Part shown: positions 2,398 through 2,793 of the stretch, piece by piece
How positions within the stretch are numbered: the first letter of the stretch is position 1
How the letters are laid out: each line of letters begins with the position of its first letter
Virus record (IMG/VR): IMGVR_UViG_2563366976_000007
DNA: 9,836 nucleotides
Strand: one strand, 5' to 3'
Source of the DNA: a virus
Taxonomy: Duplodnaviria > Heunggongvirae > Uroviricota > Caudoviricetes
The notes under the pieces: model-generated
What the model was told of the DNA's origin: nothing
The model's input: the letters and a program-made list of their open reading frames with translations, nothing else
The model's database searches: none
Translations under genes and position numbers: made by a program

Positions 2398-2424
2398 TGA
2401 TGCACCTCACTTAAATGGACTTTA

Positions 2425-2505
2425 TGGGCGCACACAATACAGCAAAAAAAATGAGATGTTAAGTATTGACATGTGCGCACACATGATTTTAATCTGTGCG
2501 CACAG
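2425..2505. promoter_or_regulatory. Divergent promoter/operator region with three TGTGCGCACA-type palindromes
   Basis: Perfect palindromes TGTGCGCACA (2473-2482) and CTGTGCGCACAG (2494-2505), plus a one-mismatch copy TGGGCGCACA (2425-2434). Rightward sigma70-like promoter: -35 TTGACA (2466-2471), 16-nt spacer, -10 TTTAAT (2488-2493). The palindromes overlap the spacer and the +1 region, and the third overlaps the leftward promoter of the RHH gene. Confidence 0.6.
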
Positions 2506-2595
2506 TTTGAGTTTTGTCACTCAAATTAAGCAACGCCCCGCAGTGCTCGCAACACATGCAGGGCGTCTAACCAACAACGTAAACTAGGAGCCGTT

Positions 2596-2793
2596 ATGGT
2601 TGCCGTAAATCATATACCACACCTTGTACACACACAAACGGCCTTTGTGTGGCGTTTTCTGGCACTGAGTGCCGGAGAATCCCAAATCATCCACGTAACC
2701 GCCTGGACGGAACGCGAAGCGCGTAGCCGTTGCCCGTCCGGTTGTGTTGCTGTATTCGCCGCCCGTATTCGTCAGGAGGTGTGCCATGCCTGA
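2596..2793 (+). CDS. Possible leader peptide / small upstream ORF (65 aa) in the early-operon leader
   Basis: AGGAG (2586-2590) 5 nt upstream of ATG 2596. Stop TGA (2791-2793) overlaps the start region of the next gene (ATGCCTGA). The protein is low-complexity and unrecognisable, and the same stretch carries a hairpin/T-run, so it may be a regulatory leader rather than a functional protein. Confidence 0.3.
   Translation: MVAVNHIPHLVHTQTAFVWRFLALSAGESQIIHVTAWTEREARSRCPSGCVAVFAARIRQEVCHA

Follow-up and report, generated by a model that had tools for sequence, protein, structure and literature searches.

How the replication genes of a phage satellite are kept silent, and which factor accomplishes this, is the question raised by the stretch of DNA analysed here (9,836 nucleotides, hereafter the window). 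Judged by its gene set and gene order (int, alpA, primase, then packaging/interference genes) the window is a Gram-negative PICI of the EcCICFT073 type, a class which we define by these genes together with a size of ~10-11 kb and insertion at a chromosomal att site. It is 99.3% identical to an E. coli chromosomal island located between yljB and clpS which carries int, alpA, primase, capsid, decoration protein and small terminase genes, and it matches the gene order of EcCICFT073 including the major capsid, the decoration protein and the small-terminase-like gene. Helper-phage induction, packaging and transfer have been demonstrated for EcCICFT073 (PMC6092414). The tyrosine integrase (1-1239) and AlpA (1562-1858) are followed by two leftward reading frames, namely an ORF of 57 codons with a very basic product (1969-2142, minus strand) and the gene of a 65-residue protein of the YlcI/YnfO family (DUF3950; 2200-2397, minus strand), a predicted ribbon-helix-helix (RHH) repressor. 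Rightward follow a gene for an Icd-like putative cell-division inhibitor (2596-2793, plus strand; NCBIfam NF033153, 64.7 bits), which heads the early operon, a hypothetical gene, DUF4222, a D5/P4-type primase (3394-5226, plus strand), SSB, PerC, major capsid, decoration protein and the small-terminase-like gene. Since the operon downstream of the icd-like gene continues to the primase, the "lytic or replication operon" of the preliminary description is a replication or early operon; the lytic part of that label does not apply.

Upstream of the RHH gene, a sequence and pattern search of all 9,836 bases locates exact copies of TGTGCGCACA at 2472-2481 and 2495-2504 and a copy with one mismatch, TGGGCGCACA, at 2425-2434. 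These are the two perfect palindromes and the near-copy sharing the core GCGCACA which had been described before. Besides these three sites no copy with one mismatch or fewer is present in the window. As any given 10-mer is expected only ~0.02 times in the window (own arithmetic), two exact copies 23 bp apart are not attributable to chance. The number of copies with up to two mismatches (8, compared to 5.7 expected) is by itself uninformative. The core GCGCACA occurs seven times (2.25 expected; three of 200 shuffles reach seven), and five of the seven copies fall within 80 bp, at 2428-2504. The second exact copy grows to a palindrome of 12 bp, CTGTGCGCACAG, at 2494-2505, a site which reads cTGTGCGCACAg. 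We designate the three sites O1 (2423-2434, ATGGGCGCACAC, core TGGGCGCACA), O2 (2471-2482, ATGTGCGCACAC, enclosing TGTGCGCACA at 2472-2481) and O3 (2494-2505).

All three lie on predicted promoter elements. The rightward early promoter (2466-2495, plus strand) consists of a -35 TTGACA (2466-2471), a spacer of 18 nt and a -10 TAATCT (2490-2495). O2 adjoins this -35 hexamer and fills the spacer, while O3 overlaps the last two nucleotides of the -10 and the predicted start site. On the minus strand a consensus scan assigns to the RHH gene a promoter at 2434-2462 (-35 TTAACA, 2462-2457; 17-nt spacer; -10 TATTGT, 2439-2434) whose -10 and start site are abutted or overlapped by O1; the ribosome site of this gene, GAGGTG (2403-2408, minus strand), precedes the ATG by 5 nt. 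Both the divergent control region and the placement of its repeats over the two promoters, as initially proposed, are thereby supported, and the three repeats behave as operators on both promoters. The rightward promoter needed a correction: its TTGACA stands, whereas the -10 moves by two nucleotides from TTTAAT (2488-2493) to TAATCT because TAnnnT is conserved in the related loci and TTTAAT has no A at position 2. A hairpin (TTTGAGT..ACTCAAA) at 2506-2525, where the early transcript is predicted to begin, could be a 5' stabiliser or the site of another protein; other loci have different palindromes at this place, for example CCTTGA..TCAAGG running out of O3.

For comparison, DNA was collected from 98 loci (45 genomic and 53 from the viral collection; 74 non-redundant) spanning Enterobacterales, Orbales (Gilliamella/Orbus) and a Pasteurellaceae taxon, mostly surrounded by int, alpA and primase, and 70 distinct upstream regions were compared. 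They exhibit a fixed layout of TTGAC, a 12-bp site (O2), 11 nt and a second 12-bp site (O3), TTGAC being invariant in 67-70 of the 70 regions. The rightward -10 is conserved as TAnnnT at +24 to +29, with 18-nt spacing after TTGACn (T in 64, A in 66 and T in 67 of 70 regions), and is composed of the last four nucleotides of the spacer and the first two of O3. In 49 of the 70 regions O1, the third site, is found 41-42 bp leftward of TTGAC; a leftward TAnnnT adjoins it in 56, and the leftward -35 is not conserved. The sites follow the consensus nTGT-N4-ACAC, in which the outer TGT and ACA are kept everywhere while the inner four bases vary, being the same among the three sites of one element and different between elements. 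Centre types comprise GCGC (window), a TTTAAA type, TATGTG, GGGTGC, ACGGAC (Gilliamella) and GGGCCAC (EcCICFT073), and the sites of most relatives read GTGT..CAC. EcCICFT073 itself has a control region of the form TTGAC-GTGGGCCACACC-11 nt-GTGGGCCACACC plus a third site: the corresponding segment of the E. coli CFT073 chromosome (L048; NC_004431, 7243-8053) holds three GTGGGCCACAC-type sites together with a leftward YlcI/YnfO gene, the 57-aa ORF and the icd-like gene. In the RefSeq record of EcCICFT073 the RHH and icd-like genes bear out-of-series locus tags, which suggests a later addition of these small genes to the annotation.

Two departures from the common layout were observed. In one viral record (L064; IMGVR_UViG_2874945390_000001, upstream of 1501) which has the RHH type of the window, O2 and O3 are seemingly fused into one and the 23 bp between them, including the -10, are absent, as if deleted by recombination between the repeats. 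In the TTTAAA-type loci (L016, L022, L027, L037, L068 and others) a fourth site precedes TTGAC by ~19 bp, and the distance from O1 to TTGAC is 65 bp rather than 41-42 bp.

Family membership of the 65-residue protein is clear, as it scores 59 bits with NCBIfam YlcI/YnfO (NF041551; cut-off 30) and 28.3 with Pfam DUF3950 (PF13132; cut-off 25). The latter is matched by all 38 aligned homologs, and among the 115 homolog clusters obtained by protein search every named one is YlcI/YnfO or DUF3950. The RHH fold which had been ascribed to it is likely though weakly indicated, the evidence being Pfam matches to RHH families below threshold (including HicB- and CopG-type antitoxin DNA-binding domains), an AF2 monomer and an hhalign alignment to Arc. 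In the AF2 model residues 1-18 are extended and followed by helices 19-35 and 41-63 (pLDDT of the helices 83-87), in agreement with the N-terminal strand and two helices within ~45 residues that characterise an RHH domain; the strand of this fold can form only in a dimer, and the model is a monomer. Neither a PDB sequence search with the family profile nor a Foldseek search of the PDB with the model returned a match, and a BFVD structure search yielded none below E=1. By hhalign, KSAKKNIRFPHELIDGIDA of the YlcI/YnfO protein is aligned onto KMPQFNLRWPREVLDLVRK of Arc, whose sequence was confirmed against the PDB. In this register Arc R13 is matched by the invariant arginine, and Arc Q9 and N11, which are base-contacting residues, are matched by the variable positions -4 and -2.

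A literature search on DUF3950/YlcI/YnfO, EcCICFT073 and RHH proteins in PICIs found no functional study of YlcI/YnfO. A "transcriptional repressor" label reached via a match to Pasteurella Pmp7 was rejected as evidence since this label belongs to the gene on the opposite strand. Homologs also occur close to the right cos end of lambda, DE3 and Stx phages, where they are often unannotated; in the lambda-like phage ev207 (L106, 228-422) the homolog is 43% identical (..TRNIRFPNQMIEQ..). As there is no TGT-N4-ACA triplet upstream of the lambda-like homolog at the right cos end, it is uninformative with respect to function. The first 35 bases of the ev207 record contain Nextera adapter sequence, AGATGTGTATAAGAGACAG.

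We took the N-terminal arm and β-strand of the YlcI/YnfO protein as the 13 residues preceding the invariant RFP motif. Operator distance between elements correlates with arm/strand distance (Mantel r=0.52-0.56, p<=3e-4), and controlling for the leader, for the first rightward ORF and for the remainder of the protein leaves the correlation in place (partial Mantel r=0.52, p<=3e-4). Conversely, with the arm taken into account, none of these three features retains a residual correlation with the operators (r=-0.03 to 0.01), which argues against plain linkage. Features in such close linkage may covary in part through joint inheritance as a module; the controls argue otherwise. The best single predictor of operator type is position -4 from the invariant arginine, the equivalent of Arc Q9, and position -2 (Arc N11) is among the five best. 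RHH proteins are homodimers which read the major groove with their paired strands, alternate residues of the strand giving specificity, a mode with which the dependence on arm and strand is indirectly consistent. The code is not one-to-one: a T,G strand occurs with TATGTG as well as with CCCCAA centres, and GCGC centres are paired with K,N and with K,Y strands alike. From the fixed layout and from the way in which the operator tracks arm and strand we conclude that the RHH protein very probably binds O1-O3, shuts off the early promoter from the icd-like gene to the primase and regulates its own synthesis. The adjacent small RHH protein, already favoured in the preliminary description, hence remains the best candidate for the binder. 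Its earlier designation as master repressor is at most tentative, given that AlpA is known to be indispensable for activation in this PICI family and that related PICIs lack the RHH gene.

The leader that separates O3 from the icd-like start codon is conserved far beyond the RHH module: of 5426 complete E. coli genomes, 1175 contain a match, which frequently precedes icd-like or ash genes in the absence of an RHH gene. It comprises two hairpins with compensatory changes, which we initially read as a structure of the sense strand. This reading was revised in favour of the minus strand because matches to symR lie on the other strand and because of the distribution of G.U pairs. The Rfam symR model (RF01809) matches seven relatives on the minus strand over its full length. 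A covariance model built from 32 satellite sequences with window-like sequences excluded (R1) scores 52 bits (E about 2e-10) on the window read from 2602 to 2517, and it also finds EcCICFT073, the O157 island and the annotated symR of K-12 (33 bits). Since the RF01809 scores of the relatives (29-42 bits) fall under the gathering threshold of 61 bits and R1 gives 33 bits on symR, we regard the RNA as a related family and not as a member of symR by the Rfam definition; on the window itself RF01809 has no match at E<=10. Base pairing on the minus strand holds in 96.6% of cells, compared to 84% in shuffles and 35-45% in slid controls, and 13 of the 22 pairs of the antisense RNA exhibit compensatory change. 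G.U cells that are valid only on the minus strand number 91, as against 4 valid only on the sense strand; on the respective opposite strand they would be A.C mismatches.

The predicted SymR-like cis-antisense RNA gene thus delimited (2517-2602, minus strand) has a 5' end coinciding with the second codon of the icd-like gene. Its anti-Shine-Dalgarno hairpin opposite 2576-2595 is followed by a terminator hairpin opposite ~2533-2567 and a U-rich tail; on the plus strand, the Shine-Dalgarno sequence AGGAG of the icd-like gene (2586-2590) is located in the loop of the hairpin at 2576-2595. Position, alignment and strand-specific structure consequently agree with an RNA of the SymR kind, i.e. a cis-antisense RNA which starts just inside its target ORF and covers the ribosome site, and the transcript of ~80 nt would probably cover both the Shine-Dalgarno sequence and the AUG of the icd-like gene. 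Its putative promoter lies inside the icd-like ORF (2609-2637, minus strand), with a -35-like TTGTGT (2637-2632), 17 nt and a -10 TATGAT (2614-2609). The latter represents a TAnnnT motif that is conserved at nucleotides 14-19 of the ORF across different coding sequences and aligns with TAGAAT of the symE ORF (alignment A3); mutation of the symE-ORF site overlain by this TAGAAT abolishes the symR promoter (PMC1891008). TTGTGT, in turn, may act as the functional -35. On the plus strand a terminator-like hairpin, CACACAAACGGCCTTTGTGTG followed by GCGTTTTCTG, is present inside the icd-like ORF at 2631-2651, where it overlaps the putative antisense -35; it could be an attenuator or a product of chance.

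These results bear on the contrast which had been drawn to the P4 CI RNA. An Rfam scan of the whole window and of 2380-2900 revealed no C4, CI, IsrK or SymR but microRNA-type chance matches only, and a search for P4-like pairing of the hairpin loop with downstream sequence gave nothing consistent and no conserved complementarity. The contrast to RNA-based immunity is nevertheless incomplete, since the SymR-like antisense RNA at 2517-2602 lies on the minus strand partly within the very region (2400-2600) considered.

Taken as a whole, the locus is best explained as an EcCICFT073-type PICI in which an RHH repressor acting on O1-O3 is combined with an antisense-RNA layer, an explanation which we consider probable on the strength of the sequence comparisons. 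According to this explanation, the YlcI/YnfO protein would be an Arc/Mnt-like repressor. Its dimers, whose binding mode and stoichiometry we infer from such comparisons, would insert their N-terminal two-stranded sheet, aided by the N-terminal arms, into the 12-bp nTGT-N4-ACAn sites. Occupancy of O2 and O3 would block RNA polymerase and thereby silence the icd-like/DUF4222/primase operon in the quiescent island, while O1, situated where the weak promoter of the RHH gene has its -10 and start, would mediate negative autoregulation. The inner four bases of the sites and the arm/strand residues, chiefly the equivalents of Arc Q9 and N11, would form matched specificity types which differ between elements like immunity types. 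As a second, post-transcriptional layer the SymR-like RNA, presumably expressed constitutively from inside the icd-like ORF, would pair with the ribosome site and the start codon of the first early gene. Induction requires AlpA, as published, which would have to act above or around the RHH block. This block might be relieved by an anti-repressor or by transcription that starts at the alpA promoter and runs antisense through the RHH gene; such read-through appears possible given that the plus strand from alpA to the control region shows no terminator-like site.

The role of AlpA also lends itself to a different reading, in which the RHH protein does bind the sites without being the maintenance switch. 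The island would then be silent chiefly because AlpA is absent and the antisense RNA present, and the role left to the RHH protein, Cro- or Arc-like, would be confined to trimming early transcription or to closing it down once induction has occurred. We hold this to be unlikely, though clearly the most serious of the alternatives. AlpA has been shown experimentally to be an essential activator in Gram-negative PICIs, and excision and replication of EcCICFT073 can be induced simply by overexpressing it (PMC6092414). In the same vein, a PICI of the O157 type retains the leader, the antisense RNA and the icd-like gene without an RHH gene, and the module allele of the window is found in only 69 of 5426 E. 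coli genomes compared to the 1175 with a match to the leader. In that O157:H7 island, inserted at roxA (L102, 2822-3766), a truncated icd-like or Bro-type pseudogene is flanked by alpA on one side and by the conserved leader with its antisense RNA and icd-like gene on the other. Against a mere trimming function speak the two operators on a near-consensus -35 and a conserved -10, a layout of tight repression. Moreover, an autoregulated promoter of its own fits a protein made in the quiescent state, and the module is kept across several bacterial orders.

Far less probable is that the sites are bound by AlpA, by the first early protein or by a host regulator such as LexA, the RHH-like gene being a bystander. 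AlpA is a DNA-binding regulator encoded 340 bp away, but at one locus (L010) the operators are identical while AlpA is only 34% identical, and three further loci (L007, L008, L033) lack AlpA within 4 kb. AlpA is therefore not linked to the sites and was rejected as their binder, being diverged or absent where the operators are identical. The LexA box is CTGT-N8-ACAG, to the half-sites of which O3 (CTGT..ACAG) bears a superficial resemblance; the spacing of the present sites is N4, most relatives read GTGT..CAC, and the sites are element-specific, which excludes a host factor as explanation, so that a LexA box was rejected as well. Against any other binder speaks the fact that the inner bases track only the RHH arm and strand and neither ORF1 nor the leader. 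Least probable of all is a toxin-antitoxin-like pair of the RHH gene and the 57-aa ORF (1969-2142, minus strand) autoregulated at O1 with an incidental rightward overlap, since, although RHH antitoxins are known to autoregulate their own operons, HicB-/CopG-type antitoxin domains are weakly matched, the ORF is annotated beside the RHH gene in two E. coli islands and a half-site, GTGTGCGCC, precedes its start at 2143-2151, the proposal found little support: tblastn detects the ORF in 0 of 45 loci from other genera that retain the RHH gene and all three sites, a terminator-like hairpin (2164-2190) separates the two genes, and two of the three sites stand at fixed register on the rightward promoter in the 70 regions.

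The preferred reading, an RHH repressor on O1-O3 with an antisense-RNA layer, may be set against known systems. The immI region of P22 likewise features small RHH proteins, Mnt and Arc, divergent from the repressed operon, with operators over both promoters (Pant/Pmnt) and autoregulation, and the strand motif FNLRWPREV of Arc resembles NIRFPHEL of the YlcI/YnfO protein. Yet there is no significant sequence match between the latter and Arc or Mnt, and the satellite has three TGT-N4-ACA sites 23 and 47 bp apart in place of the single 17-21-bp operator of P22. The subsites of Arc and Mnt are spaced by 11 bp, compared to a centre-to-centre distance of 23 bp between O2 and O3, a difference which counts against the repressor model. 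In addition, the P22 operon encodes an antirepressor of a phage, whereas the satellite operon encodes an Icd-like protein and replication functions. With Stl/Str of SaPIs (Rpr in other PICIs), a master-repressor pair known in divergent arrangement from Gram-positive PICIs, the module shares the location between the integrase side and the replication operon as well as back-to-back promoters, and the YlcI/YnfO protein is a candidate for coupling quiescence to the helper phage. Stl proteins, in contrast, are larger helix-turn-helix repressors for which de-repression by helper proteins has been shown, and Gram-negative PICIs additionally require AlpA (PMC6092414). Thus, the proposed RHH switch works like P22 Mnt/Arc and sits where Stl/Str sits but is a member of neither family.

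The antisense RNA most closely resembles that of the type I toxin-antitoxin locus SymE/SymR of K-12: it starts at the second codon of the target, its promoter lies inside the ORF, and it combines an anti-Shine-Dalgarno hairpin with a terminator whose loop is GUGUUGGCGCAC. Homology to symR is indicated by reciprocal covariance-model matches, as symR is detected with the model derived from satellites and satellites are detected with the symR model of Rfam. The two systems differ in the target, which is an Icd-like protein heading a replication operon here and the AbrB-fold SymE there, and in the control of the sense promoter, which is under RHH operators here and under LexA in symE. P1 immI (c4, icd, ant) and P4 CI are similar insofar as a small RNA limits an operon starting with icd-type or satellite early genes. 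Their RNAs, however, are cut from the sense leader and have repeated targets, whereas the RNA of the satellite is a true cis-antisense RNA.

Gram-negative PICIs were described in 2018 as transcribed in one direction (PMC6092414), and as being without a clear repressor; the unidirectional description, like the published role of AlpA as master activator, counts against the present explanation. In this satellite family, described without a divergent regulator, the RHH protein and its three sites are likely the off-switch of the replication genes; the YlcI/YnfO repressor is previously uncharacterised and the antisense RNA next to it previously unnoticed. The model island EcCICFT073 itself carries a leftward candidate regulator gene, operators to match over its early promoter and a predicted antisense RNA directed at the first early gene, whereby the silence of the satellite, and what induction must overcome, become directly testable. 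DUF3950/YlcI-YnfO, a family of many enterobacterial satellites and lambdoid phages, acquires a testable function, and the natural series of arm/operator pairs lends itself as a ready data set for studying RHH specificity and supplies orthogonal repressor-operator parts. Should the YlcI/YnfO protein not bind, the conserved triplet of sites would still call for an explanation. More speculatively, and at present doubtful, the YlcI/YnfO protein might fill the vacant place of master repressor in a large class of Gram-negative PICIs, EcCICFT073 among them, with an anti-repressor as the helper's inducer, interchangeable arm/operator types as immunity groups and the SymR-like RNA as a fail-safe. If so, immunity groups would decide which satellites coexist or respond to which helpers, and the SymR-like RNA would guard against leaky expression of a toxic icd-like gene.
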